The notes under the pieces are model-generated. The model was not told the DNA's origin, searched no databases, and saw only the letters and a list, made by a program, of their open reading frames with translations. From Patescibacteria group bacterium (GTDB lineage: Bacteria > Patescibacteriota > WWE3 > UBA101185 > UBA10185): a DNA stretch of 64,000 nt. The translations under genes and the position numbers were made by a program. The stretch spans positions 168,996-232,995 of the forward strand of contig JAFGOI010000004.1 in the NCBI GenBank assembly GCA_016926555.1, written 5' to 3'. Shown piece after piece: positions 21,011 to 64,000 of this stretch (the stretch's first letter is position 1; every line of letters begins with the position of its first letter).

Positions 21011-23455
21011 ATGAGTTCATATCTTTATTTCTCTGATTCATCTGAGCTGCACAAAAATAGAGCAATTGAGTTTTCTGATAATTCAAGAAAAATACTAGAA
21101 AAAAGGTATTTGAGAAGAAATGAAGCTGGAGAGGTAGCTGAAACACCGGAAAAAATGTTTGAGAGAATCGCTACCGTTATAGCTGAACCGGACAGACCTT
21201 ACAGAGATGTAGAAAAGACTAAAATTGAGTTTTATAATCTCCTATCCAAGAAACGCTTTTTTCCGAACTCCCCGACATTTACAGGTGCAGGAACACCTTT
21301 AGGACAGCTGGCGGCGTGTTTTGTTCTGCCCATTGAGGATGATTTAGGCAAAAATCGGGCGGGTATATTTTCGACTTTATTAGTGGCGGCGTTGATTCAG
21401 CAATCCGGAGGGGGAAATGGCTTTTCTTTTTCCAATTTAAGGCCAAGAGGTGATAATGTTGCCTCGAGTAATGGTAAGGCAACAGGTCCGATCGGATTTC
21501 TATCCGTATATGATTCAGCTTTTGGCGAGATCGCGCAGGGTGGTATTAGACGAGGCGCGAATATGGCTGTATTGAAAGTGGACCATCCAGATATAAGGGA
21601 GTTTATTAAGTGTAAATCTTCTGAAGGCACTATTTCGAATTTTAACATATCTGTGACAATTACAGATGCGTTTATGGACGCGGTAAGGCAGGATACTACA
21701 TATGATCTAGTCAATCCAAGAACAGGTGAAGTAGTCGAGAGCCCCCCTGCGAGAGAAATATTTGACATGATAGTTGATTATGCATACAGAAATGGTGAAC
21801 CGGGCGTTTTGTTTATTGACACGGCCAATAAGTATAATCCTGTACCGCATAGATACAGATTGGAGGCAACAAATCCATGTGGGGAGCAGTGGTTGGGGCC
21901 TTATGAGAATTGTTGCCTGGGTTCAATAAATCTCGCCGAGCATGTAAATGATAACGGATATTTTAATTGGGAAGAACTTAGAAAGACTATAATTCTTAGT
22001 ACAAGGTTCCTTGATAACGTGGTTACCGCGAATGGCTACATTCCGAGTGTTCCAGAACTTCGTAAATCTGCGTATGAGGTTAGAAGAATTGGTCTTGGGA
22101 TAATGGGACTTGCAGATATTATGTACGCTCGGGGGATTAGGTATGGTAGTGACGAAGGGCAGGAATTTGCAGCTCAGATAATGGAATTTATTAGATTTCA
22201 TGCGATGAAGAGTTCAATTGAATTAGCTAGAGAGCGAGGTTCATTTCCCGCGATTAGAGGAAGTATATACGATCCGCAGAATATACAGTGGACTCCCCCC
22301 ACACCAATAAAGCCATTCGGAAGAGATTGGGGAAGGCCGGAAATTGATTGGGACGAGGTAACCGAGGGGCTGAAGTCTTATGGGATTAGAAATGGAGCAC
22401 AAACTACTATTGCACCTACTGGTACGATTTCCACCGTTGCAGGAATTGAAGGTTATGGATGTGAACCCGTTTTTGCGCTTGCCTATTACAGGAATGTTTA
22501 TCAAGCTGCTGGGGATGAAGGTACATTAACGTTGACGTACATAAGTCCAATGTTTGAGAAGGCGCTTAATAGTTCCGGTTTAGCGGAGGAACAGAAGAAA
22601 AATGTTATTGATGAAGTTATAAAAAAGGGTTCATGTCAAAATATAGATGAGATACCTGAACATGTAAAGAATACATTTGTGGTGTCAGCCGATATAAAGC
22701 CGGAAGAGCATATACTTATGCAGGCTTCACTCCAAGCTTTTGTAGACAATTCTATTTCTAAGACATGTAATTTTCCCGAATCGGCCACGAAAGATGATAT
22801 AGCAAAGGTGTATCTAATGGGTTGGGAATTAGGGTGTAAGGGACTGACGGTATATGTGACAGGTAGCAGAACAGAAGTAGTATTGGAAACCAAAGATACT
22901 AAAGATAAGAAGGATGGTGGTGCGTTTAATAAGCCAGTGGAGTTTGAGAGGGGGTATAAACTTGCGGGTTCTACGTATAAACTTCCCACACCTCAAGGAA
23001 AAGCTTTTATAACCGTTAATAAGGTTGCGGATGGAACACCGGTTGAAGTTTTTGCGAACGTTGGCAAAGCCGGTAGTGATGTTGCCGGTTTATCTGAGGC
23101 TTTAGGTCGGTTGATTTCCGGTTGGCTGAGGGTATCGCCATATCCGATAGAAACGGTAAAAGAAATAGTGCATCAGATGATTGGAATCGGTGGGTCGCAG
23201 TCAGTTGGTTTTGGAAAAAACAGAGTCACTTCCATACCCGATGCTGTGGCAAAAGTGTTGGTTGAAGAGTTCCAGCTGCGTGTTCGCCCAGGTGATGTGT
23301 ATGATGATAATGGGGCAGGGTCTCATGTAATAGAGAACGGTAAGAAGCAGAATGTGTTCGATAGGACGGATATGTGTCCGGAATGTGGAAACTATACGTT
23401 GGTGTATGAAGAGGGTTGTGCAAAATGCTACTTTTGCGGATTCTCGAAATGCTAA
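21011..23455 (+). CDS. nrdJ: Adenosylcobalamin-dependent (class II) ribonucleotide reductase NrdJ
   Basis: 814 aa. 'TNPCGEQWL' active-site Cys region and a C-terminal Cys cluster '[26 protein letters not shown]'. Confidence 0.9.
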
Positions 23456-23478
23456 TAATTTTGGTATAGCAAAAATAT

Positions 23479-24033
23479 ATGCCTTACTACACTAAAAACG
23501 GGGATGAAGGAAAGACAACACTATATAAAGGGAACGAACAAAAGTTCAAGTCCAGTGAGGTGTTTGACGTTTTGGGTACTCTTGATGAGCTTAACGCTTC
23601 GTTAGGATTTCAGCATATATCTCATATCAAAAGTATCAGCAGGCTTATAATTGAAATACAAAACGAGTTATTTGTTATTGGTAGTATTATAGCTAAAGAT
23701 TCCGCTGAACCGGTTAATGTAGAATATTGGGAAAATAAAATAGAACGGATGGAGAAGGAAATAATTTTCTATGATAAGGATCTTCCTGGACTTAGCTCTT
23801 TTGTTATTCCCGGAGGAACTAGTGAAGCAGTACATCTTCATGTGTCCCGCACAATTGCCAGAAGGCTAGAGAGGAGACTAGTATCTTATATAAACAGTGA
23901 GAATAAAAGAAATTACATTATTCTTGAAAAGTATATAAATCGTTTATCCGACTTATTATTTGTTTTGTCTCGCTATGCGAACAATGTACTAAATACTGAG
24001 GAAGTTTTTGTTAAGAATGCTAATATTATCTAA
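23479..24033 (+). CDS. ATP:cob(I)alamin adenosyltransferase, PduO type
   Basis: 'NGDEGKTTLYKGNE...FDVLGTLDELNASLG' matches the PduO/MMAB family. Adjacent to the B12-dependent RNR. Confidence 0.8.
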   Translation: MPYYTKNGDEGKTTLYKGNEQKFKSSEVFDVLGTLDELNASLGFQHISHIKSISRLIIEIQNELFVIGSIIAKDSAEPVNVEYWENKIERMEKEIIFYDKDLPGLSSFVIPGGTSEAVHLHVSRTIARRLERRLVSYINSENKRNYIILEKYINRLSDLLFVLSRYANNVLNTEEVFVKNANII

Positions 24034-29235: not shown

Positions 29236-29832
29236 TCATTTGACGAATCTTGCTTTTCCCAGTGGATAGTATACAAATAGTGCCCTTCCGATTATTCTAT
29301 CTACTTTTATTGCGCCCCATTCCCGGGAGTCTTTGCTGTGCTCCCTATTATCCCCGAGGAGAACATAGGCATCCTTGTCGATTTTGTATGAGACCTCTTC
29401 GGCAATAGCATCTCTTCCCGCCGTTACAGTGCCATCTGTGAGATAGGTCTCATCAAGGGGTTGATCATCAACATATACTTTGCCTTCGGATATTCTAATT
29501 ACTTCGTCGGGAAGCCCGACAACGCGTTTTATAATAAGTCTTTGATTAACTTCGGGATAATTAGGATTAACGAATATCACAATATCGCCACGTTCAGGTT
29601 CTTTAAATTTAACTGATACTTTTTCGGCAATGAGCCTCTCTTTATCGTAAAATGCTGGGGTCATAGAATCTCCTGACACCTCAAGTAACTGTCCTATAAA
29701 AAAGTATACTACGATGAAAACAGTAGTGCTAATTAATATGAGTTCAATGACATCCAATATGATATTTACTGTGCCACGCGGTATTTTTGCCACATTAATA
29801 TTGTAGGTGCGTCCATGATTTGATGCAAACAC
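29236..29832 (-). CDS. lepB: Signal peptidase I
   Basis: 'GDSMTPAF' Ser box and 'GDNREHSKDSREWG' box E. N-terminal TM. Confidence 0.85.
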   Translation of the reverse strand: MFASNHGRTYNINVAKIPRGTVNIILDVIELILISTTVFIVVYFFIGQLLEVSGDSMTPAFYDKERLIAEKVSVKFKEPERGDIVIFVNPNYPEVNQRLIIKRVVGLPDEVIRISEGKVYVDDQPLDETYLTDGTVTAGRDAIAEEVSYKIDKDAYVLLGDNREHSKDSREWGAIKVDRIIGRALFVYYPLGKARFVK

Positions 29833-29976: not shown

Positions 29977-31203
29977 CTACTTCACAAACTTTTCGTACAG
30001 CAAATCCCAGAGTTCAATATAACCGCCATCATAACCTAAAGCCCAGATTCCAACTCCCGCAAGATTATTTTCGTTAATTAAGCTATATTTTGCTTCTAGT
30101 GATTGGGAATTCTCATAATAGACCTCTCTTATCTGGTCTGTTTCTTCGCTTGTGTATGTGAAAAAAGGAGTTTGTCCCAATTCATCCCACATAATTTCCG
30201 GATCGTTTTCTAAAATTACTTCCATAACTTCTTCATATGCCTGAGACATTGAATATCCCGAATTGTCATTTCCTTCAATTCTTTTGGCATATTCCTCATC
30301 TGTTTCTACAACCCAGTTGTAGCCATAATAGGGTACACCCATAATAAGCTTGTTTGGAGGAGAAACTGATAGATAGTCTTTTACCATTGTTTTTAGATCA
30401 TAATCCGAATGGATGCCTATACCCCCTAGTGGCGCCACTGGGCCGGCATTGTCAGAAGTGGGTCTATGGAAGTCATATCCCATTATAAATATGCCATCTG
30501 CACTTTTTGAGAGGTTGTCAATGTCTGATGTTACTCTGGGTTTTACTAAAGAATCTGCGAATGTTGCTACCACAACAAAAGAATCCCCGAATTCTTTATC
30601 TAGTTCCTCGTTATAATACTTAATTAACTCCTGGTAGAGCTTATGTTGGGAGTTTTCCGTATACTCGTAGTATTCAAAGTTCATGTTCAAATCTGTTATA
30701 TCTTTAAATCTGAGTTCCTGTTTAATATTTTCCAAGAGAGTGTCCCAGCATTCTCTGCAGTTTAGGAATTCATCTGAAACCTCGTCGACATGTGAAATAA
30801 TTGTTAGCGCGAATCTCACACCTTCCTCCTTAGATTTTTTTATAATTTCGTCCAAATCGGGGCTGTCTTTCCAGTTCAGATACCCCGGAATCTGATTTCC
30901 CTCCACGTCGACTTTTAGAAAATTTCCGTCTTTATCAATGTGAAGGCCAAAATAAGCTATGTCTGTTAGTTTGTCGTATTGTAGAAACTCCTTTTTTTCG
31001 ATAGTCCAATAGGGCAGATAGCCGTATATTATTCTTTTAGGGCGTTCTTTCTTTTTAAATAAGGAAAATATATTCACGCTTTTACTAAAAGGCGACAGCA
31101 AAGATCTACCTCTAGGAATACTTCTCATAATATGTGTGAAGGTAATTCCCAGAATTACACCAAAAAAGATTATTATTAAAGCAAGCTTTGTTTCCGGTTT
31201 CAC
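29977..31203 (-). CDS. Glycoside hydrolase family 18-like protein (membrane anchored)
   Basis: N-terminal TM. GH18 blocks 'YGYLPYWT', 'LTDIAYFGLHIDKDG', 'IMGYDFH', 'GVGIWALGYDGG'. The catalytic DxxDxDxE is altered to 'DITDLNMNFE' (Glu retained). Confidence 0.55.
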   Translation of the reverse strand: MKPETKLALIIIFFGVILGITFTHIMRSIPRGRSLLSPFSKSVNIFSLFKKKERPKRIIYGYLPYWTIEKKEFLQYDKLTDIAYFGLHIDKDGNFLKVDVEGNQIPGYLNWKDSPDLDEIIKKSKEEGVRFALTIISHVDEVSDEFLNCRECWDTLLENIKQELRFKDITDLNMNFEYYEYTENSQHKLYQELIKYYNEELDKEFGDSFVVVATFADSLVKPRVTSDIDNLSKSADGIFIMGYDFHRPTSDNAGPVAPLGGIGIHSDYDLKTMVKDYLSVSPPNKLIMGVPYYGYNWVVETDEEYAKRIEGNDNSGYSMSQAYEEVMEVILENDPEIMWDELGQTPFFTYTSEETDQIREVYYENSQSLEAKYSLINENNLAGVGIWALGYDGGYIELWDLLYEKFVK

Positions 31204-33727: not shown

Positions 33728-34907
33728 TTATTTATATTATTTATGTGTCCTTGCCCTTTCTCTTGGTCAGTTCAGTAGTATTAGCAAATCAGGAGGTATA
33801 AATATATATGTTTTTGATGTTTTGGTATTGGTTTTCTTTTTTGTTGGTTTTATATATTTAGCTTTAGTTAAAAGGACTTTTTATATATCCAGGTTGTTCA
33901 TGCCTTTTGTGTTATTCTCGGTAGTAGCAGCGATTTCGTTAATAATAAACTCTTATAAATATTCCGAGAGAGAGGTATTATCGGCCTTTTTCTATTTCTT
34001 AAGATATGTCTCTTATTTGGGCTCCGGAATTGTCTTGGAAAATATGAAGCGTATTAAAATGATAGGTTCAAAAGATATTTACAAAGCGTTTATTTTATCA
34101 GGTGTGTTTTTGTCTCTGGCGGGATTTATACAATTAGTGGTACTGCCTGATTTTGAGGTTCTTGAATCGTCTCTGGGATGGGATCCTCATAAGAACCGCC
34201 TAGCGTCCACATTTTTCGACCCAAACTTTCTCGGGGTCTATTTAGTTATGTGTTTAGGTATTTTGTTTAACAAACATTTTGAAGGAGATAAACTCAGTTT
34301 GGTCGATATTGCGGCTGGAGTTTTTATTCTGCTGGCGATAATTCTGACTTTTTCGCGCAGCACGTGGCTAATGCTCGCCGTGATGGTCTTGTTATATGGA
34401 ATAGTGAAGTCACGAGTGCTATTTATCTTATCTTTGTTCCTATTATTTTCTACTTATTATTTTATTCCAAGAGTTCAGACCAGAATATCCGGGATAACTG
34501 ATCCCGCGGATTCGGCTCATTATAGATTAATTTCCTGGAGGAATACTCTGGAAATTATTGAAGATAACTGGTTATTTGGTGTTGGTTTCAATGCTTATAG
34601 ATACGTTCAAAAGGAATACGGTTTCTTAGATTTTGATACTTATTTGGATCATTCTGGCGCGGGATCTGATTCCAGTTTTCTATTTGTTGTGGCGACGTCA
34701 GGTGTATTTGGGCTTCTAGCCTTTCTGTATGGATTCTTCCAGCCGCTTTATATTTCAGCAAGATCCCCGTCCGGTAAAAATATGTTGTACATACTCTTGA
34801 CGGTGGGATTATTTGTTGAAGCTCAGTTTATAAATTCCATGTTTTTCCCTCAGATAATGTTCGTGTATTATTCTTTACTCTCTAGTGACTCTTTTGTTCG
34901 TACTTGA
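33720..34907 (+). CDS. O-antigen ligase / polymerase-like membrane protein (Wzy_C)
   Basis: 395 aa polytopic. 'TFSRSTWLMLAVMVLLYGI' is Wzy_C-like with a large periplasmic loop. Overlaps the flippase by 8 nt. Confidence 0.55.
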   Translation: MLNYLYYLCVLALSLGQFSSISKSGGINIYVFDVLVLVFFFVGFIYLALVKRTFYISRLFMPFVLFSVVAAISLIINSYKYSEREVLSAFFYFLRYVSYLGSGIVLENMKRIKMIGSKDIYKAFILSGVFLSLAGFIQLVVLPDFEVLESSLGWDPHKNRLASTFFDPNFLGVYLVMCLGILFNKHFEGDKLSLVDIAAGVFILLAIILTFSRSTWLMLAVMVLLYGIVKSRVLFILSLFLLFSTYYFIPRVQTRISGITDPADSAHYRLISWRNTLEIIEDNWLFGVGFNAYRYVQKEYGFLDFDTYLDHSGAGSDSSFLFVVATSGVFGLLAFLYGFFQPLYISARSPSGKNMLYILLTVGLFVEAQFINSMFFPQIMFVYYSLLSSDSFVRT

Positions 34908-35622
34908 CTTTAATGCTTTCTATAGAGTCATTCCCTGCTTCATCAATAGCTTTTACTTTGATTTCAATCCATCCCTCGTTGACTCCCAAAAGGTATTCGT
35001 AGGAGTAATCCGGTTTTTGGATTACCATCCTGTCATTTATTAGAATTTGAGCTTTTTCGTTTATTTTTCCTGATATTTCGATTCTTTTATCCAAGTTTTT
35101 AATTGTTTCATTATCTTTTGGTTTATCTATCTCAATTTCCGGTTTTTCTTTGTCAAGAATAATAATAAGGGTTTGAGATTTGTCACTTTCGTTTCCCTGC
35201 GAGTCTTCTACTTTCGCAAAGAGTGTATTTCTTCCGGGAATTAATTTCACCTCTGAAAATGTGAAAATGCCATCATTATCTACTGTTGTTTCCTCTTTTT
35301 CAGGCCCGTTGACAAATAATTTTACTTTCATGCCCTTTTGTGCGTACCCTTGTAAAGTGACTTTATCGTCTTTACTTGCAGTTGGGGGATTGGAAAAAAC
35401 CGGAGTGTTGGGTTTAATCAACGGTACCTCACCCGGGTCGTTTCTGTGAACTGAAAGAAATCCCAGTAAGTAGCCTATTTGTGGCGCAAAAAAAGTTAGA
35501 GAAACAACGGCAACTAAGCTTACTATTAATATACCAAGGACGGCGATTTTGAGTCTTTTGTAGTAATCAGGTTGTTTGGAAGCGCTCCTTAGATTTCCAG
35601 GTGTATTTTTTACCACATGCAA
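34882..35622 (-). CDS. Membrane-anchored protein with Ig-like (Big) beta-sandwich domains
   Basis: N-terminal TM 'LKIAVLGILIVSLVAVVSL', then two segments of about 90 aa rich in T/V/K/E/G typical of bacterial Ig-like folds. Confidence 0.4.
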   Translation of the reverse strand: MHVVKNTPGNLRSASKQPDYYKRLKIAVLGILIVSLVAVVSLTFFAPQIGYLLGFLSVHRNDPGEVPLIKPNTPVFSNPPTASKDDKVTLQGYAQKGMKVKLFVNGPEKEETTVDNDGIFTFSEVKLIPGRNTLFAKVEDSQGNESDKSQTLIIILDKEKPEIEIDKPKDNETIKNLDKRIEISGKINEKAQILINDRMVIQKPDYSYEYLLGVNEGWIEIKVKAIDEAGNDSIESIKVKYEQKSH

Positions 35623-37631: not shown

Positions 37632-38108
37632 TTAAGGCAGAACCAGGACCTGGCCCGGCATTATGAGAGCCTGTTGGCCATTTGGAAGATAACCAACGCT
37701 ATCAGGGTTCGCATTGAGTATCTTCACCCAGTCTAAACCATTTCCGTAAACTGCCTCGGAGATTTCCCATAAAGTATCACCGGCTTTTACTGTGTATGTT
37801 TTTCCGGCGATGTCTCCTTCTTTATAGTCAGTAGCTTGCCATGAGGGTGTGGTAATCTGTGCCCCTCCCGGCTGCTGTTGAGCTTCTTCTGTACTTGTGG
37901 AAATCCCTTCTCCGATGAGTTCACCTTCTCTTGTACTTTTGCCCTTAACCTCTTCGGTTCCCCCGCTTTTTGATCCCAGTCCATTGCTTAAATTATCGGT
38001 TTTATTGAAATAGTTATAGGCTGCAAATACAAGGGCGAGAATAAATAGTCCCCCTACAATTAATGCCAATCCATCTTTCTGTTCAGTTTGTGCCATCTGC
38101 TTTAACAC
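37632..38108 (-). CDS. LysM peptidoglycan-binding domain protein (membrane anchored)
   Basis: N-terminal TM. C-terminal LysM 'YTVKAGDTLWEISEAVYGNGLDWVKILNANPD'. Confidence 0.75.
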   Translation of the reverse strand: MLKQMAQTEQKDGLALIVGGLFILALVFAAYNYFNKTDNLSNGLGSKSGGTEEVKGKSTREGELIGEGISTSTEEAQQQPGGAQITTPSWQATDYKEGDIAGKTYTVKAGDTLWEISEAVYGNGLDWVKILNANPDSVGYLPNGQQALIMPGQVLVLP

Positions 38109-38281: not shown

Positions 38282-38587
38282 GTGGAAAGGCAGGTGATTG
38301 GTCTGTTATCCAAATTACCAATAGATTTAAATAAAATTGGCAAAGACAATATTGATTCGGAAATACTTAGGGCGGGAATAATTGCAGAATTAGACGCTAT
38401 TAATCTTTATGAACAAATGTCTGAGATGGCGGTGGATAAACATCTCAAAGATCTTTTGTTAGATATTGCTAGAGAAGAAAAAACCCACGTTGGAGAGTTT
38501 CAGGCGTTATTATTACGGGTTGATAAAGAGCAGGAGAAAGAGTTGGAGAAGGGAAGAGAGGAGATGGAGGAGATTTTGGAGAAATAA
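38282..38587 (+). CDS. Small ferritin-like (half diiron site, EncFtn/rubrerythrin-like) protein
   Basis: 101 aa with a GTG start. 'AELDAINLYEQMSE...DIAREEKTHVGEF' matches the E...ExxH pattern of about 100-aa encapsulated-ferritin-like proteins. No C-terminal encapsulin targeting peptide is present. Confidence 0.45.
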   Translation: MERQVIGLLSKLPIDLNKIGKDNIDSEILRAGIIAELDAINLYEQMSEMAVDKHLKDLLLDIAREEKTHVGEFQALLLRVDKEQEKELEKGREEMEEILEK

Positions 38588-40483: not shown

Positions 40484-42244
40484 GTGCCAAGTTTCTATGA
40501 TTTTTCCAATTCAGAAGTTGTTCAGCAGTTAAAAGAGGTTTTGGCCGCGATGCAGATTAAGGATGCGGACGCTTTTAGAATTAGGGCTTATGATAACGCG
40601 GTTACCGCATTAGATAACCTGACTGTTTCCATTAAAGATGTGTGGGAGGATGATCGATTGAACCAAATTCCCGGAATTGGTTCCAGTTTGGCGCAGCATT
40701 TAAATGAACTTTTTACGAAGGGTCGGGTTTCGGAATGGGAGAAGGTAAAGGAAAATCTTCCTGAAGGAATGTTTGGTTTAATTGGGCTAAGAGGGGTTGG
40801 TGCTAAGAAAGCTTATAAATTGGCAAGTGAGTTCCAGCTTAATTCCAAGGAAACCGCTATCGAAGAACTTAAGGATTACGCGGAAAAACAAGAAATTAGA
40901 GATCTTTCTGGATTCGGCGATAAATCTGAAAAAGATATCTTAGAAGCTATTGAACAATCGAAAATGACAAAAAGTGAGAAGCCCCGAATGTTGCTAATAC
41001 GAGCTGAAATCATCGCGGAAAGAATAAAAAAGCACATGAATTTGCTTGACTGCATTGAAAAAATGGAAGTTCTAGGGTCTTTTAGGAGGAGAAATCCAAC
41101 TGTGGGAGATTTGGATTTCGCTGTTGCTACAACAAAGACAAAAGAAGTGATAGACCATTTTCTTGAATTCCCGGAAATTTCCGAGATCTTAGCCCAAGGA
41201 GAAAATAAAGTCATGGTTGTTCTTTCAAATGATACGCAGGTTGATTTAAGAGTGTCTTCTCCCGAAGCGTATGGCGCGATGCTTCAATATAACACGGGGA
41301 ATGTGCAGCATAACATAATTCTTAGAACCCACGCGTTGGAAAAGGGATTATCTTTATCGGAATACGGAATAAAAGATAAAAAGACAAACAAAATAAAAGA
41401 ATTCGCTACAGAAGAAGAATTTTATGAATATTTAGGTCTGCAGTATATTCCACCTGAATTAAGGTACGGGCATAACGAAATAGAATTGGCTCGTGAAAAC
41501 AAAATTCCAAAATTAATAGATGTCAGTGATATTAAAGGTGATCTTCACACACATACGGTTTATTCTGATGGGCTGAATTCTGTTTCCGAGATGGCGGAGA
41601 CGGCTTTGTCTTTAGGATATGAGTATTATGGGATCACGGATCATTCTCCCAGCATTCAAAGTAGGGGAAGGGATGAGGTGGAAAAATTAATTTCGAGTCA
41701 GAAAGCCGAAATAGAGAGTTTTAATAAAAGTCAGAATAAGCTTAGGGTGCTTTTTGGTTATGAATTGAATATTCTTGTGAGTAATAAGTTGAGTCTCCCC
41801 GATGACATTCTGAAGGAACTAGATATTGTGGTTGCAGGGGTGCATTCCTCGTTTGAGCAAGACAAAAATACAATGACAAAAAGGCTTATTTCTGCCATTG
41901 AAAACGAATATGTCCATATTATCGCGCATCCATTGAATCGATTAATTAACGAAAGGAAGGCGGTTGATCTAAATTGGAATAAAGTGTTTGACTCCATAAA
42001 GGAGAATAATAAGGTGTTGGAGATCAATTCTCAGCCAAATAGACTTGACCTTTCGGATGATTTAGTGCGCGAGGCGGCTCAAAAAGGTATAAAGATGATT
42101 ATTGATACAGATGCGCATCAAACCTCGCAACTGTTATATATGAGATACGGAGTTGATGTTGCCAGGAGGGGTTGGTGCGAAAGAAAACATATTCTGAATA
42201 CTCTGCCAAGATCAGACTTCTTAAAAGAACTCGGGATTAAATAA
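40484..42244 (+). CDS. polX: Family X DNA polymerase with C-terminal PHP phosphoesterase domain (PolX)
   Basis: HhH N-domain. Pol-beta-like 'GSFRRRNPTVGDLDFAV'. PHP motifs 'DLHTHTVYSDG', 'ITDH' and 'DTDAHQ'. Confidence 0.85.
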   Translation: MPSFYDFSNSEVVQQLKEVLAAMQIKDADAFRIRAYDNAVTALDNLTVSIKDVWEDDRLNQIPGIGSSLAQHLNELFTKGRVSEWEKVKENLPEGMFGLIGLRGVGAKKAYKLASEFQLNSKETAIEELKDYAEKQEIRDLSGFGDKSEKDILEAIEQSKMTKSEKPRMLLIRAEIIAERIKKHMNLLDCIEKMEVLGSFRRRNPTVGDLDFAVATTKTKEVIDHFLEFPEISEILAQGENKVMVVLSNDTQVDLRVSSPEAYGAMLQYNTGNVQHNIILRTHALEKGLSLSEYGIKDKKTNKIKEFATEEEFYEYLGLQYIPPELRYGHNEIELARENKIPKLIDVSDIKGDLHTHTVYSDGLNSVSEMAETALSLGYEYYGITDHSPSIQSRGRDEVEKLISSQKAEIESFNKSQNKLRVLFGYELNILVSNKLSLPDDILKELDIVVAGVHSSFEQDKNTMTKRLISAIENEYVHIIAHPLNRLINERKAVDLNWNKVFDSIKENNKVLEINSQPNRLDLSDDLVREAAQKGIKMIIDTDAHQTSQLLYMRYGVDVARRGWCERKHILNTLPRSDFLKELGIK

Positions 42245-44190: not shown

Positions 44191-45617
44191 GTGGATTAAA
44201 CAAATTCAGCCTTGCAGAATCTAGGGAGCTTTTAAAAAAGGGGGAGATATCCAGCGAAGATTTGGTTAGGGCGTGTTTAGAACAGATAGAAGTTTATGAT
44301 CCGAAAATAAAGGCCTTTGTTACAGTGTTAGAGGATAAAGCTTTAAGACAGGCAAAAAGGGCTGATAATCTAATAAAAAAACGAGGCAAGGAGGTGTTTG
44401 ATGAAAAACCTCTTCTTGGGATACCATATGCGGCTAAAGATAACTTTTCAACTAGAGGAGTACTTACCACATCTTCGTCCAATATGCTTGATAATTATAT
44501 TCCCCCATTTGACGCAACCGTAATAAAAAGGTTAAACGAAGCCGGTGCTATTCTTATTGGAAAAACAAACATGGATGCCTTTGCTCATGGCGCTTCAACT
44601 GAAGCGTCTGATTTCTTTACTACTAAAAACCCCTGGGATACTGATAAGGTTGCGGGTGGTTCATCGGGAGGCTCCGCTGCCGCAGTAGGATCTGATATGT
44701 GTGTTTTTGCAGTTGGGAGTGAAACCGGAGGAAGTATTAGGGGGCCCGCATCTTGGTGTGGGGTTGTCGGGTTTAAACCAAGTTATGGAAGAGTATCTAG
44801 ATATGGTGTAACTGCCATGGCCTCATCGACGGATTCTCCTGGTCCGATCACTAAAACTGTTAAAGATGCCGCCATAGTATTGGGTATTATTGCAGGTAAA
44901 GATCCTTTTGACGCTACAACATCCCCTGTGCAAGTGCCAAATTATTTGTCCGGCAGTGAAGAAATTGATGTGAAAGGTTTAAAAATCGGGAAACCACGAT
45001 CGTATTTTGAGGTGGGTCTTGATGAGCCAATTAGGAAATGTGTTGAGAGTGGTTTGAAAGAGCTTGGAAAGCAAGGCGCGGAAATTGTGGACGTAGACCT
45101 TTTAGATCCGAAATACTCAATTTCTGTGTACACAATTCTTCAGAGATCGGAAGTGTCATCAAATCTCGGCAGACTTGACGGGATAAGGTACGGTAACACA
45201 CGGGACCATTTTGGTAAGGAAGCAAAGAAAAGGATAATGCTAGGTACGTATACGTTGAGTTCCGGTTATTATGATGAATACTATGGAAAGGCTCAGAAAG
45301 TACGTACTTTGATAATAGATGATTTCAATAAAGTGCTGGAAAGAGTGAATTTTATATGTGGTCCTACGATGCCATGCACAGCCATGGATATTGGTGCGAT
45401 AGATACTTCTCCTTTGTTTGGGGAATTGATAGACTTACTAAATGAACCTAGTAGTATCGCTGGGTTACCCGGTGTGACTATTCCGTGTGGTTATGTTAAG
45501 GATCTTCCGGTGGGAATTCAGTTTATAGGAAGAATGATGGGTGAAAAGACAATTTTAAATGTTTCTCATAGATTTCAACAAGTAACAAATTATCACAAAG
45601 AAAGGCCAAATCTATGA
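44187..45617 (+). CDS. gatA: Asp/Glu-tRNA amidotransferase subunit A (GatA)
   Basis: Amidase signature 'GGSSGGSAAAVG' with the Ser-cisSer-Lys triad context. ATGA overlap with gatC. Confidence 0.92.
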   Translation: MSGLNKFSLAESRELLKKGEISSEDLVRACLEQIEVYDPKIKAFVTVLEDKALRQAKRADNLIKKRGKEVFDEKPLLGIPYAAKDNFSTRGVLTTSSSNMLDNYIPPFDATVIKRLNEAGAILIGKTNMDAFAHGASTEASDFFTTKNPWDTDKVAGGSSGGSAAAVGSDMCVFAVGSETGGSIRGPASWCGVVGFKPSYGRVSRYGVTAMASSTDSPGPITKTVKDAAIVLGIIAGKDPFDATTSPVQVPNYLSGSEEIDVKGLKIGKPRSYFEVGLDEPIRKCVESGLKELGKQGAEIVDVDLLDPKYSISVYTILQRSEVSSNLGRLDGIRYGNTRDHFGKEAKKRIMLGTYTLSSGYYDEYYGKAQKVRTLIIDDFNKVLERVNFICGPTMPCTAMDIGAIDTSPLFGELIDLLNEPSSIAGLPGVTIPCGYVKDLPVGIQFIGRMMGEKTILNVSHRFQQVTNYHKERPNL

Positions 45618-45817
45618 ATACTCGCGCACTTTTACCTGTAATAGTATTTATCTTGATGCTCGGTTTAGCTATAGTGGCGGGGAATTTTGTTATCGCCAAA
45701 ATAATACACATCCCGTTGGATAAAGCACCGTTCTTTTTGAAGGCAATCGTCCATGGAGTAGCGTTAGGAGGTGTATTTTATGTTGGCGCGAAGTACTTTG
45801 GGAGTAAAATGGGATGA
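45614..45817 (+). CDS. Hypothetical 67-aa two-TM membrane peptide
   Basis: Hydrophobic 'LLPVIVFILMLGLAIVAGNFVIAKII' and 'AIVHGVALGGVFYVGA'. ATGA overlap with the gatA stop. Confidence 0.4.
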   Translation: MNTRALLPVIVFILMLGLAIVAGNFVIAKIIHIPLDKAPFFLKAIVHGVALGGVFYVGAKYFGSKMG

Positions 45818-46200
45818 ATTTATTTTGGTGGCTCTCTCCTAAGAAGAAAAGAGCCATAGTAAAAGGTGAGACTTTAGATTCAGTCAGGAGAGAATGGAGT
45901 GAAATTAAAATATTGCTTGCCCAAGGTAGTCCTAGCCAGTTGAAACAGGCCTTGATTGCAGCCGATAAGACTGTAGATACGGTGTTAAAAGATATTATTG
46001 AGGGGGATACAATGGGTGAAAGATTAAGGAATGCTAGGGATAAATTCGATGACAGAGATACGTACCAAGGTATATGGGATGCACATAAAATGAGGAATGC
46101 TTTAGTGCACGAATCAGGCTTTGAGCTTACCCATTTCTCCCTTAAGAAGGGTGTTGAAAAGCTGAAAGAAGGTTTGAAGGCTTTAGGAATAGCTGTATGA
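45814..46200 (+). CDS. HEPN-domain protein, HepT/DUF86-like (Rx4H motif)
   Basis: 128 aa, predicted all-alpha. Carries 'GIWDAHKMRNALVHESGF', i.e. a W-x6-R-N-x3-H-E arrangement. ATGA overlaps with both the upstream peptide and gatB. Confidence 0.4.
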   Translation: MNLFWWLSPKKKRAIVKGETLDSVRREWSEIKILLAQGSPSQLKQALIAADKTVDTVLKDIIEGDTMGERLRNARDKFDDRDTYQGIWDAHKMRNALVHESGFELTHFSLKKGVEKLKEGLKALGIAV

Positions 46201-52022: not shown

Positions 52023-52079
52023 TCTCTATTAGAAACCTTATTATTAAGTATCCTTGTCATTTCTGATATCATTACTATA

Positions 52080-53435
52080 GTGCGCAAGCTGTCTGTAAAT
52101 AAAATAATTTTCTTAATTTCGTTATTATTGACACTGCATCAATTTACGTATGCTACCATAATTACGTGTGAGGACGGTGAGCCTGGTCTTAACCCAGGGA
52201 GTGTTTGTACTATAGGAGATCCAAGTGTAGTTACGCGTTGCTGTCCCGGTTTGCAGGAGTATGGATGTCGGCATATAGATCCTGGTGCCCCTCCCAATGT
52301 GGGTGTTTGCACTGCAACTTGTTATGGAAATAATCTCGGATGCTATGCCGGCGGGCCAATGACCTGCTGCGGTTACCCAGATTGGGATTGTGAGGTTACA
52401 AATCCTCCGGCAGGCACGGGGATTTGCAGAAGGCAGTGTACAGCGCATTATAACCAATGTGATTGGGAAGACGATGATTGCTGTGATTATCCTGATTGGA
52501 AGTGTCTTTACGAGACCCCCAGCTATGGCCGTTGCTCAGTAACATGTATATATTTAGGTGAATCCGGCTGTTCTTGGGATGTTCCGTGTTGCGATGATGG
52601 AGATCCCAATTATGATTATCTCTGTGATAATGGCACATGCGTGCTAGATGTGGCAGCAACGTGTCATACAGACGCCGACGTTGATTTTCAGTGTAATACT
52701 GATCTTGATTGTTGCGGGGGCTATGTGTGTAATTCTGATGGTGTTATTGCTCGTTGCACTGCTTGTGGCGGATCAAATGCAGTTTGCGATAGTTATCATC
52801 CTTGCTGCGGAGATTATGTTTGTAGAGAAGGTTACTGTGTTTTAGAGTGTGTTTATGAGAATTGTGATGACGACCATCTCTGCTGTGGGCAGTATACGTG
52901 TGAATCAGGAAATTGTGTGGAAGATTGTCTTGGCCATGGCGCTACATGTACGTCTCAAGGTGAGTGCTGCCTTTCTATGGATTTAGAATGTGACTTTTCT
53001 GCGGATCCTTACACAGGGCGTTGTACAACATATTATGAAGGAGATCCAAATGATCCTGATACCTGTTATCACACCGGTTATGCCTGCGATACAAGTTCTG
53101 ATTCGTGTTGCAATTACTTAGGGCTTGATTGTGAGGCATCTCCTTTGACTACGCAGGGTATTTGTACGAACTCTGCTGCAGCAGTACCCTCCGCAGATTT
53201 TACGGAGTTCCTAGGAATTATTAGTACGTTTGTAGATATTGCCTTTTATATAGCATTTGTATTGGGTGCGGCTATAGTTATGAAATCGGGGTATGGATTC
53301 ATTACTAGTGCAGGGGATCCAATGAAGATGAAAGAAGCTCGCGACGACTTCATAAGTGCGGTAACCGGTGTTGGATACGTTGTTTTATCTCGCCCATTGA
53401 TCAATATTTTTATGAGTTCTATGCTGGGTGTGTGA
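52080..53435 (+). CDS. Cysteine-rich modular extracytoplasmic protein with C-terminal two-helix membrane anchor
   Basis: Signal peptide 'MRKLSVNKIIFLISLLLTLHQFTYA'. About 54 Cys in a 335-aa ectodomain arranged as nine C-x5-6-CC-x4-6-C-x4-10-C-x2-3-C modules. C-terminal hydrophobic hairpin 'FVDIAFYIAFVLGAAIVM...ISAVTGVGYVVLSRPLINIFM'. Confidence 0.55.
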   Translation: MRKLSVNKIIFLISLLLTLHQFTYATIITCEDGEPGLNPGSVCTIGDPSVVTRCCPGLQEYGCRHIDPGAPPNVGVCTATCYGNNLGCYAGGPMTCCGYPDWDCEVTNPPAGTGICRRQCTAHYNQCDWEDDDCCDYPDWKCLYETPSYGRCSVTCIYLGESGCSWDVPCCDDGDPNYDYLCDNGTCVLDVAATCHTDADVDFQCNTDLDCCGGYVCNSDGVIARCTACGGSNAVCDSYHPCCGDYVCREGYCVLECVYENCDDDHLCCGQYTCESGNCVEDCLGHGATCTSQGECCLSMDLECDFSADPYTGRCTTYYEGDPNDPDTCYHTGYACDTSSDSCCNYLGLDCEASPLTTQGICTNSAAAVPSADFTEFLGIISTFVDIAFYIAFVLGAAIVMKSGYGFITSAGDPMKMKEARDDFISAVTGVGYVVLSRPLINIFMSSMLGV

Positions 53436-53556
53436 GAGACGGAAAGCTTTTTTTCCGTGAAAGAATTTTCTTACCAAAATGGATATAACTAATTGCTTTT
53501 TGAAATTTACCTACTGCTGTCTAGGTTTTCATACTAGGTCAGGTTATAATTAAAGA

Positions 53557-58826: not shown

Positions 58827-60557
58827 TTAAACTTTGGAAAGGATGTAGTTTCTCTTTTTTAAGAATGACAGGACTCTTTCAGCGGATTTTTCTATGCCTT
58901 CTAAGTCCGGACGAAGTTCAATTTCCGGAATCTCCGGTTTTTCGTAAGGAGCTGAGATACCGGTAAAATCTTTGATTTTACCTTCACGGGCTTTTTTGTA
59001 GTATCCCTTTTTGTCCCATTCCTCGCATATTTTTAAAGGGGTATTTACAAATACTTCAATAAAATTTGGGGTTTTCAGACGGATGCTATCCCTTTGGCTT
59101 TTATAAGGGGATATAAAAGACGCTATTACACCCACACCATTTCTGGCGAGCAACTTTGCTACAAAACCCACTCTTCTAATATTCTCGTCTCTATCCTGTT
59201 TTGTGAATCCAAGATCTTTAGTAAGACTTTCCCTAACTATATCCCCATCTAAACGTTCTATTTTTAGTTCGGCGTCTTTTAATTTGTCGTAAACAATATC
59301 GGCTATTGTACTTTTGCCCGATTGTGGAAGACCGGTAAACCACAAAACGAAACCCTCATTATTTCTGTTACTTTTATACAATTCATCAACTAAAGCATTA
59401 TCGCTATTAATGATTAGTTTGAATACTTCTGGCGCGATTAAGTACTCTTGAGGTATGTCTTTATTTTTTATAAGAGTCCTTAATGAAGTTCCACTGAATC
59501 TCACTCTATTATCTTCATGACAGTCATCAAAAAAACAATGTCTTTTATTTCGTTTATCGTAAACTACTTCGGGATATTTTAATATTTTAATGCCTATTTC
59601 TTTAGGATCGAATTGGTCAAAAATTTCATGGGCTGCAGACGGCTCGTAGAAATCACCTACACCTGCGTGGTCTCGTCCTACTATAAAATGTGTACAGCCA
59701 TAGTTTTTTCTTATAATTGCGTGAAAGACTGCTTCCCGCGGTCCTGCGTAGCGCATTTCAACCGGGAGTATCCCCAGAACCACTTTTCCTTGGGGAAGAT
59801 ATTTATCTATTAAAATCTCATAGCTTCCTATAATGTATTCGTCTTTGAAATCTTCTATTTTCTTTTCCCCAATCACTGGTTGAATAAAGAGGCCATCGGT
59901 TTGTTTTAGTGTTTCTCTTTGTAAATACTCATGTCCTTTGTGAGGTATATTTCTTGTCTGAAATGCGCCGATAGTTTTCCACCCTCTGTTTAAAAATATT
60001 TTTCGTGTTTGTTCCGGACTCATGTTGTGTTCTGGAAAGATCATTTCGTTGGTTTCCATTAGAAAGGTCTCACCTCCCAGTAAGTATTTTTTCATTTTAA
60101 GAACCTCTTCAACTCCCGGGTGTTTTTTATCCGTTGTGCCAAATACATATTTAGCTAATTCCTCTTTACTATAAGTGTAGATTTCCGGTTTTGTTAAAAC
60201 AGCCACCGGATGCTTGGTTTCTTTCGAATAGACAATCACTCTTTCGTTGTCTGAAATACGCTTTTTATCTGTTTCTGATATGTCAAGAACTATCGGGATT
60301 GTCCAAACTATTCCGTTTGCCAAACGCATGTGTTTCAAAACATTTCTATAATCCTTTTTATACAGGAATCCTGTTAAGGGAGAGTACACTCCGAGGGAAA
60401 TATTTTTTATATCTTTTATTCGCTCTGTTGATGCGTATATTTTCGGATATTTTTCAAGATTTTTGTAGTAATACTTAGATTTGTTGTAAGAAAGTACTTT
60501 ATTAATAAGTTTACCTCCGTGTGGGGTTATCATGGCATCGAAAATTATATCAGACAT
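58827..60557 (-). CDS. Bifunctional sulfate adenylyltransferase (ATP sulfurylase) / adenylylsulfate (APS) kinase
   Basis: N-terminal 'QTRNIPHKGHE' sulfurylase motifs (QTRN, HxxH). C-terminal APS kinase P-loop 'VLWFTGLPQSGKSTIA' and 'ISPYKSQRD'. Confidence 0.85.
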   Translation of the reverse strand: MSDIIFDAMITPHGGKLINKVLSYNKSKYYYKNLEKYPKIYASTERIKDIKNISLGVYSPLTGFLYKKDYRNVLKHMRLANGIVWTIPIVLDISETDKKRISDNERVIVYSKETKHPVAVLTKPEIYTYSKEELAKYVFGTTDKKHPGVEEVLKMKKYLLGGETFLMETNEMIFPEHNMSPEQTRKIFLNRGWKTIGAFQTRNIPHKGHEYLQRETLKQTDGLFIQPVIGEKKIEDFKDEYIIGSYEILIDKYLPQGKVVLGILPVEMRYAGPREAVFHAIIRKNYGCTHFIVGRDHAGVGDFYEPSAAHEIFDQFDPKEIGIKILKYPEVVYDKRNKRHCFFDDCHEDNRVRFSGTSLRTLIKNKDIPQEYLIAPEVFKLIINSDNALVDELYKSNRNNEGFVLWFTGLPQSGKSTIADIVYDKLKDAELKIERLDGDIVRESLTKDLGFTKQDRDENIRRVGFVAKLLARNGVGVIASFISPYKSQRDSIRLKTPNFIEVFVNTPLKICEEWDKKGYYKKAREGKIKDFTGISAPYEKPEIPEIELRPDLEGIEKSAERVLSFLKKRNYILSKV

Positions 60558-63250: not shown

Positions 63251-64000
63251 TTAGCTACTTTCTTCGGGGTAATAATTTTTGGATAGCATTTCCCAGTTTT
63301 GAGCGATTCTAACGGTACGTGCCATGTTTTCAACAAATAATCTAGTGGTGATTTCTAGTCTTTTTTCTGCTTGTGCATATTCATCTGAATCAGGTAATGA
63401 AGTCGCGATATCATATCTTAGTGTGGCGACTTCTTTAAGAAGCATACTTCCCATACCTATTCTTGCAAATGCTGGGTGTCCTTTGTCGGCGTGAATTGTC
63501 TCCACGGCGCCTGTTTCTTCATTGATTCTGCCAACGGTTTTTTCTGCAAAATAGTTGCCAAGTTGTATCGGGTAATTTCCGTGTGTGATATTTCCCTCTG
63601 TATCAACGTCCACACCCATGCGAGCCAAAAACCTTAATTGTGTAATTTCGTTTGGTGAGAAATCTTTTCCGTCAGGATGTTTTAAGTGGAAAGATAATAT
63701 TGAGCTTTGTAGTAATCCTGTATCTTCCCCGGTTTTTTGTAGATCAACCATTCCATAGTTTCGGAGGGTTCCTTCTGAATAATTTAACCCATTCAATTCC
63801 AGATATTTCTCTACGGATTCCGTGAGATATTTTGCCGCGTCGGAATATATTTCTCTGTTTTTGGGATCCATGATTTCTCTGTATGTACTGATTGCTCCTC
63901 CCAATCTTGTTTGTAACGCTACCTTCTCTGACAATTCAGCCCCTATAGGCGTGCCCTCCGCTTCGTCCTCCACGAATGTTACGGGTATTCCTTTATCAAG
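63251..64000 (-). CDS. Hypothetical protein (partial; ORF continues past window end)
   Basis: Open frame with no stop upstream of the listed GTG, so it extends beyond 64000. No domain recognised. Arg/Glu-rich like its neighbours. Confidence 0.4.
   Translation of the reverse strand, partial: LDKGIPVTFVEDEAEGTPIGAELSEKVALQTRLGGAISTYREIMDPKNREIYSDAAKYLTESVEKYLELNGLNYSEGTLRNYGMVDLQKTGEDTGLLQSSILSFHLKHPDGKDFSPNEITQLRFLARMGVDVDTEGNITHGNYPIQLGNYFAEKTVGRINEETGAVETIHADKGHPAFARIGMGSMLLKEVATLRYDIATSLPDSDEYAQAEKRLEITTRLFVENMARTVRIAQNWEMLSKNYYPEESS

Follow-up and report, generated by a model that had tools for sequence, protein, structure and literature searches.

A putative modular VirB2-like pilin carrying an acidic array of nine knottin-like modules in a WWE3-related member of the Patescibacteria

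In Patescibacteria, VirB2-like pilins of the family PF18895 have been described as near-universal, often multi-copy and divergent in sequence, and the small size of VirB2 has been noted; a pilin gene lies near virB4 in 1,135 of 1,948 assemblies and not near it in 813 of 1,948, and the type IV secretion system (T4SS) of the phylum is reported to have MPF-FATA ancestry (PMC12102498). Freshwater-specific structural clusters are dominated by PF18895 (bioRxiv 10.1101/2025.04.23.650224). The only Patescibacteria that can be manipulated genetically depend on the T4SS and its VirB2-like pilins for their epibiotic life, and no adhesin has been found for the system (PMC12102498, PMC10633639, PMC12857230); in Candidatus Southlakia epibionticum, the pilin array is essential for epibiotic growth (PMC10633639; PMC12857230). 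The window analyzed here, a stretch of 64,000 nucleotides from contig JAFGOI010000004.1 of a Patescibacteria metagenome-assembled genome (MAG), contains at positions 52080 to 53435 of the forward strand an open reading frame (ORF) with a GTG start and a TGA stop, whose 451-aa product joins a large Cys-rich ectodomain to a C-terminal hairpin of the PF18895 family. We judge it slightly better than an even chance (about 0.55) that this gene encodes a modular VirB2-like T4SS pilin of a WWE3-related member of the Patescibacteria, with an acidic poly-knottin stalk on display that probably serves to attach the cell to its host.

The idea of a modular pilin is not new in itself. Streptococcus sanguinis PilB is reportedly a modular type IV pilin with an adhesive module displayed on the filament. 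Pilins of this type share with the present protein the concept of a pilin domain joined to a binding module; however, they belong to type IV pili and not to a T4SS, their pilin fold is unrelated, and their module lies C-terminal to the pilin domain. The knottin scaffold is, to our knowledge, otherwise known essentially from eukaryotic toxins and defense peptides. The tarantula double-knot toxin DkTx (tau-theraphotoxin-Hs1a), the remipede toxin Xibalbin3-Xt3a and the SCREPs have the tandem spacing C-x6-C-x5-6-CC-x4-6-C-xn-C in common with the target, and this shared tandem format suggests a multivalent design; however, the target has nine units and not two, is bacterial, membrane-anchored and strongly acidic, has linkers of 2-3 aa, and resembles the tandem peptides at the level of the framework only. 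The plant knottins PA1b and leginsulin are free, single-domain eukaryotic peptides of 37 aa, with 16-24% identity to the target. The parts are thus of known kinds (PF18895 pilin, knottin framework), but the combination of nine bacterial units N-terminal to a T4SS pilin was found nowhere.

The C-terminus forms a hydrophobic hairpin, with helix 1 at about residues 373-409 (hydrophobic core 377-402), the loop SGYGFITSAGDPMKMKEARDDF and helix 2 at about residues 414-450, and both helices were modeled by AF2 with a pLDDT of 74-84. When the isolated C-terminus (residues 366-451) was compared with PF18895, it scored 28.9 bits (E 1.2e-6, profile positions 7-68 of 71). This exceeds the curated gathering cut-off of 26.6 bits, and the match takes in 62 of the 71 profile positions (87%). 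The hairpin is therefore a member of PF18895, and the match lies within the limits used for calling pilins in PMC12102498 (i-E below 0.001, coverage above 50%). The only match among 18,950 NCBIfam models was to Mbov_0395 (NF045849; E 0.0025, 17.5 bits, below the 40-bit cut-off), a pilin-like conjugal transfer protein of mycoplasma integrative and conjugative elements; positions 12-79 of the 80 in that profile matched the hairpin, in keeping with the MPF-FATA ancestry that has been reported for the T4SS of the phylum, although the Mbov_0395 family, unlike the target, is without a Cys-rich ectodomain. An earlier note, made from the sequence alone, had likened the hairpin to VirB2/TrbC-type pilins; the likeness holds for PF18895 but not for TrbC/VirB2 PF04956, which matched neither the full protein (E<=10) nor the isolated domain (E<=0.01). 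No solved pilin sequence in the PDB matched the C-terminus, and a PDB search with the full protein returned nothing meaningful either.

Like the VirB2-like pilins of the same phylum, including the array of Candidatus Southlakia epibionticum, the target has a Sec signal peptide (by inspection) and a C-terminal two-helix hydrophobic hairpin (by hydropathy and AF2), and like that family it is sequence-divergent and lineage-specific. It differs in size, because the mature part of a family pilin is expected to be little more than the hairpin, whereas here about 345 extra, Cys-rich residues stand between signal peptide and hairpin. It also differs in setting, being a solitary gene between rplS and tmk, neither in an array nor beside virB4, and without a detectable orthologue.

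The ectodomain is dominated by Cys. All 54 Cys of the protein are confined to residues 30-362, where they make up 16% of the residues, compared with a mean of 0.6% in ten further genes from the window. CC doublets occur at nine places (residues 54, 96, 134, 170, 211, 242, 268, 296 and 343), a number that matches chance at this Cys density (8.3 +/- 2.4 in 200,000 shuffles of the ectodomain). However, every doublet takes the place of Cys 3-4 in its hexad; a single phase contained at least five doublets in only 2 of the 200,000 shuffles, and the largest Cys-Cys gap is 13 residues, with all gaps at or below 13 in 75 of the 200,000. The strict phasing of a doublet to every sixth Cys, unlike the number of doublets, is not due to chance. 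The ectodomain is strongly acidic (D+E 55, K+R 9, net about -46), and tandem and direct repeat searches of the DNA found no repeats of note. The Cys-rich ectodomain and the helical hairpin described in the earlier note were thus borne out, and its four example strings and inter-helix loop, TSAGDPMKMKEARDDF, are all present in the protein.

The frame proposed for the modules in that note (C-x5-6-CC-x4-6-C-x4-10-C-x2-3-C), on the other hand, proved to be shifted by one Cys: it leaves C30 over and the last module without a sixth Cys, and a relaxed pattern in this C-CC-C-C-C frame matched 5 of the 9 modules. The frame C1-x4-12-C2-x5-10-C3C4-x4-10-C5-x4-13-C6 takes in all 54 Cys as 9 x 6. In it, the longest spacers, one of 13 aa and one of 7 aa, fall between modules, the remaining linkers being 2-3 aa when counted from C6 to the next C1. 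The features of the gene, all on the + strand, are as follows.

52080 to 53435, +: whole gene, modular pilin (proposed); NCBI MBN1162386.1, JXA34_01425, annotated "hypothetical protein"
52080 to 52154, +: Sec-type signal peptide, aa 1-25 (MRKLSVNKIIFLISLLLTLHQFTYA), by sequence inspection
52167 to 52310, +: module 1, aa 30-77, loops 12/10/0/7/13; the longest and most divergent
52320 to 52427, +: module 2, aa 81-116, loops 6/7/0/6/11
52437 to 52535, +: module 3, aa 120-152, loops 6/6/0/6/9; the module modeled (pLDDT 70.5)
52545 to 52640, +: module 4, aa 156-187, loops 7/5/0/10/4; followed by the 7-aa linker
52662 to 52757, +: module 5, aa 195-226, loops 9/5/0/4/8; best Pfam Toxin_12 stretch at aa 204-220
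52764 to 52838, +: module 6, aa 229-253, loops 6/5/0/4/4; minimal canonical inhibitor-cystine-knot spacing
52848 to 52916, +: module 7, aa 257-279, loops 4/5/0/4/4
52926 to 53024, +: module 8, aa 283-315, loops 6/5/0/6/10; followed by the 13-aa linker, rich in Pro, Asp and Asn
53064 to 53165, +: module 9, aa 329-362, loops 6/6/0/6/10
53214 to 53402, +: PF18895 T4SS_pilin domain, aa 379-441 (Pfam, AF2, hydropathy)

In an alignment of the nine modules, none of the six Cys columns varies, the position two before C5 is hydrophobic or aromatic, and Gly stands two positions before C6 in eight of the nine. Outside the Cys columns, identity between modules is 5-33%; the array is therefore either ancient or quick to evolve, its scaffold being fixed and its loops variable.

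All nine modules fit the C-C-CC-C-C framework of the inhibitor cystine knot (ICK), and their loops (4-12, 5-10, 0, 4-10 and 4-13) are in the ICK range. When a profile of the nine modules was searched against all PDB sequences, the top 11 matches were ICK peptides, led by DkTx with both knots matched (E 6e-6) and including single knots of DkTx, asteropsins, heteropodatoxin, wrightide, hainantoxin and lambda-MeuTx. Pfam Toxin_12 (PF07740) scored 16 bits with the full protein, under its 21-bit cut-off, and matched three of the nine modules singly (best E 2.4e-4). Module 3, modeled by AF2 with the nine modules as the alignment, shows three short strands, and its top Foldseek match was the remipede double-ICK toxin (TM 0.57, E 0.84), with leginsulin also at TM 0.57, both statistically weak. 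The earlier suggestion of knottin-like modules is in agreement with these results, but its further comparisons were not upheld: there were no matches to granulin or to an NCBIfam repeat such as that of Myxococcus, and Dickkopf_N matched a single module (E 0.033). Granulin, Dickkopf, hevein and carbohydrate-binding module (CBM) domains and the Myxococcus repeat have 8-12 Cys per unit, compared with six here. Furthermore, no common, characterized bacterial repeat family was matched in the Pfam and NCBIfam scans. The knots and their disulfide pairing, which we infer from the framework, would make of this gene the first bacterial poly-knottin, that is, nine true cystine knots, independent of the eukaryotic ones or long diverged from them, fused to a VirB2-like pilin, with which an ultrasmall epibiont would present a hypervariable, protease-proof and multivalent array for host recognition on its essential secretion pilus; this fuller version of the proposal is tentative, and we place it well short of even odds.

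Since each tandem ICK-like unit resembles a free toxin, the protein could also be a polyprotein precursor, cleaved between its modules to set free soluble knottin peptides that would act on the host or on competitors as toxins, antimicrobials or protease inhibitors, as in the plant multi-knottin precursors; eukaryotic tandem disulfide-rich precursors of this kind have been catalogued by ScrepYard (PMC9885460). However, the linkers between modules are mostly only 2-3 residues long, dibasic or repeated processing motifs are absent from an ectodomain with only 9 K+R, the modules are acidic, whereas most ICK toxins that act on membranes or channels are not, and a secreted precursor would not need a C-terminal membrane anchor. 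A processed precursor is therefore quite improbable.

A narrower form of the adhesin proposal is that the modules are hevein- or CBM1-like lectins, making up an array that binds host peptidoglycan or chitin-like polymers of N-acetylglucosamine. The aromatic residue conserved near C5 in most modules and partial Foldseek matches to fungal CBM1 cellulose-binding domains would fit such an array, and essential polysaccharide-binding envelope proteins are known in Southlakia (PMC10633639). However, chitin-binding families (hevein/CBM) had no Pfam match to the nine modules or the full protein, with Chitin_bind_1, CBM_1 and CBM_14 remaining unmatched even at E<=10, and the CBM1 alignments span only 17 columns. 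Hevein, moreover, has eight Cys and a different aromatic register. The glycan-binding array is improbable, if marginally less so than the precursor. In favor of such an array, genes for a GH18 chitinase-like protein (29977-31203, - strand) and a LysM protein (37632-38108, - strand) lie in the window. A Big_13/Glucodextranase-B-domain surface protein is encoded there as well (34882-35622, - strand), and all three are candidates for cell-wall or glycan interaction.

The signal peptide, which the earlier note had also claimed, was supported by inspection of the N-terminus: MRKLSVNKIIFLISLLLTLHQFTYA, followed by T, has a basic n-region, a hydrophobic core of 11 residues and T-Y-A at positions -3 to -1, with predicted cleavage after this motif (Ala25). 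Inspection found no lipobox, and a reading of the protein as a lipoprotein was rejected, since the sequence is IITC with Thr at -1 and C30 is required as C1 of module 1. The window also carries a gene for signal peptidase I, at 29236-29832. At the other end of the gene, a short hairpin (53436-53465, ACGGAAA-GCTTT-TTTTCCGT) lies directly 3' of the stop codon; it was not called by the terminator scan and may mark the end of an rplS-pilin transcript.

If the gene encodes a modular pilin, the pre-protein would be exported by Sec and cut by signal peptidase I after Ala25, and the N-terminal 345 residues of the mature protein would fold outside the cytoplasmic membrane into nine six-Cys mini-domains of the ICK framework. 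With linkers of only 2-13 residues, the resulting string would be stiff, very acidic (net about -46) and resistant to proteases, its loops would be highly variable, and the C-terminal PF18895 hairpin would anchor it in the membrane. Termini face outward in solved conjugative pili. If a T4SS takes up the hairpin in the way that it handles other members of the family, the poly-knottin string would lie on the pilus exterior or at the pilus tip, where it would most likely serve, in an epibiotic lifestyle, to bind the surface of the host cell multivalently or to recognize it. Of this proposal, the architecture, the Cys framework, the place of the hairpin in PF18895, the taxon and the orphan status of the protein are established, whereas the knots, entry into a pilus and the adhesin role are inferences.

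Several observations weigh against a modular T4SS pilin, and they concern the knots, the hairpin, the genomic setting and the start of the gene. With regard to the knots, the confidence of the module model is medium, both of its fold matches are statistically weak, and the ectodomain of the full-length AF2 model, built without an alignment, is unusable (pLDDT 30-60). As a control, the residues other than Cys were shuffled inside each module and the PDB search was repeated; the loop-shuffled modules still matched ICK toxins only, with 16-18 bits compared with 18-20 bits per knot for the real modules. The knottin similarity thus lies almost entirely in the spacing of Cys. Because the shuffled modules match only ICK toxins, the spacing is by itself enough to diagnose the ICK class among PDB entries; by the same token, the outcome is no demonstration of common ancestry with animal or plant knottins. 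Furthermore, no DsbA, other Dsb or VKOR enzyme for forming disulfides was found in the window or from about -58 kb to +15 kb of the gene.

With regard to the hairpin, the full-length protein scored 24.3 bits against PF18895 (E 3.3e-5, residues 380-439), just below the cut-off; a hairpin of two hydrophobic helices has little structural complexity; and Foldseek searches with the hairpin or full-length model were non-specific, returning generic helical hairpins only. In addition, a load of 345 residues per subunit, compared with the small size of typical pilins, may be incompatible with a helical pilus, and the protein may perhaps never polymerize. Nor were T4SS genes (virB4, virB6, prgI) or a second pilin found from about -58 kb to +15 kb, extension past the edges of the window having yielded short Logan contigs only. 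These points favor a membrane-anchored surface protein unrelated to any T4SS, in which the hairpin, pilin-derived or convergent, is a mere anchor, and the poly-knottin rod, several times the size of the pilin domain, acts as spacer, coat or adhesin and never enters a pilus. This is the serious one among the rival explanations, and we judge it unlikely. Scored by itself, the domain exceeds the cut-off of PF18895 with 87% of the profile covered, the sole NCBIfam match is likewise a T4SS pilin-like protein, and the missing T4SS neighbors are not disqualifying, because a pilin lies near virB4 in only 1,135 of 1,948 assemblies, many Patescibacteria pilin genes thus standing elsewhere.

A further difficulty for the modular pilin is that the gene is a singleton, known from one MAG and from a Logan contig of one sequencing run. 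When 5.8 billion proteins were searched through a word index, the full sequence recovered no protein but itself and the C-terminus alone recovered nothing, and an exhaustive HMMER search with the ectodomain against 1.84 billion representatives also returned only itself; the sole other HMMER match (P0002) was rejected as a spurious repeat protein. The target had no match in JGI metagenome contigs, and no ORF with Cys modules or a pilin domain was found in 80 metagenome loci anchored on L19. Weak C-terminal matches in loci L102, L103, L108 and L109 were rejected as hydrophilic. Because the target is a singleton without homologue, conservation, and hence selection, cannot be shown. Literature searches found no papers on Cys-rich pilins or cystine knots in the candidate phyla radiation, and the MAG is not listed in the supplement of PMC12102498.

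With regard to the start of the gene, the independent Logan assembly has a gene call that begins at TTG codon 17 (52128) and gives 435 aa, with the signal peptide lost, and a promoter-like TTGTCA-16-TATAGT (52054-52081, 10/12 matches) overlaps the GTG with its -10 box. Together with the lack of a Dsb or VKOR gene in the window, this would fit a cytoplasmic Cys-rich domain that starts at TTG 52128, has no signal peptide, and binds metals through reduced Cys. However, with the 16 in-frame codons upstream of the TTG a textbook signal peptide is complete, an outcome that chance is unlikely to produce; no canonical start codon was found upstream of the GTG, and the NCBI annotation (MBN1162386.1, 451 aa) uses the GTG as well. 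The promoter scan as a whole is at background (7 sites compared with 8.1 expected). In addition, the ectodomain has no CxC motif and a single CxxC, which makes metal clusters unlikely and differs from metallothioneins and zinc ribbons, and a periodicity of six Cys with one CC per unit is that of a disulfide framework. A cytoplasmic metal-binding protein is the least probable of the explanations considered, and very improbable.

The organism is a WWE3-related member of the Patescibacteria, consistent with the small-genome organism that had been supposed from the sequence. PolA, encoded 2.6 kb upstream of the target, is identical to an NCBI protein from a "Patescibacteria group bacterium" (288-kb contig) and has its next named relatives in candidate division WWE3 (65%). 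A genome scan anchored on ClpC was saturated, since this protein is universally conserved (best identity 57% across unrelated phyla), and was uninformative for synteny or taxonomy. In relatives at 67-69% PolA identity (L162, L164 and L165, one of them a 768-kb contig), the block LysM-PolX-LemA-M48-GatCAB-PolA-ClpC-L19 is kept; however, none of the three has an orthologue of the target, and the genes that follow rplS are unrelated. The GC content at third codon positions (GC3) of the target, 0.338, equals that of its neighbors. Because of this and because the gene is embedded in conserved housekeeping synteny, we regard it as native; recent horizontal transfer and chimeric assembly were rejected, given the matching GC3 and the conserved flanking synteny. 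The content of the window is otherwise housekeeping in nature: uvrABC, a penicillin-binding protein, the dcw cluster, a ribonucleotide reductase, ileS, gatCAB, polA, clpC, rplS, tmk and tgt. In one of the relatives (L164, 19595-21753), an 85-aa two-helix hydrophobic protein precedes two membrane proteins, one of 526 aa and one of 103 aa; none of the three has a Pfam match at E<=0.01, and this could be a divergent pilin-like cluster.

Several other features of the window were recorded. Small genes without a Pfam match lie between gatA and gatB (45617-46200, comprising ORF 45814-46200 and a 67-aa gene just upstream), and one or two genes of about 61-70 aa and about 128-132 aa occupy the same position in relatives (L162, 1058-1644; L163, 7350-7961; L164, 7850-8248); because they stand in the same place in related Patescibacteria contigs, they represent a conserved insertion in the gatCAB operon. 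On the - strand, 58827-60557 encodes a 576-aa fusion of PUA_2, ATP-sulfurylase and adenosine 5'-phosphosulfate kinase domains, which would make 3'-phosphoadenosine 5'-phosphosulfate and, in a reduced-genome member of the Patescibacteria, suggests that a molecule on the surface or secreted from the cell is sulfated. The gene order at 21011-24033, in which a cobalamin adenosyltransferase comes after a class II-type ribonucleotide reductase with a TSCPD domain, implies dependence on scavenged B12. The + strand also encodes a small rubrerythrin/EncFtn-like protein (38282-38587) and a PolX-type polymerase with pol-beta thumb and PHP domain (40484-42244). At 63251-64000 on the - strand, a gene extends past the end of the window; its 794-aa product (L166, 11010-13394) has no Pfam match, and ORF 63251-63973 is its C-terminal part only.

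As a single orphan gene in one MAG, this locus says little about the phylum unless other modular pilins turn up. If the proposal is true, the knottin scaffold would be extended to bacteria and to a nine-unit, tandem, membrane-anchored format, which would be of interest for protein engineering, and a modular T4SS pilin would constitute a class that has not been described so far. For the biology of these bacteria, a pilin with its own large, disulfide-knotted ectodomain and variable loops would be a concrete candidate for the element by which the host is recognized.

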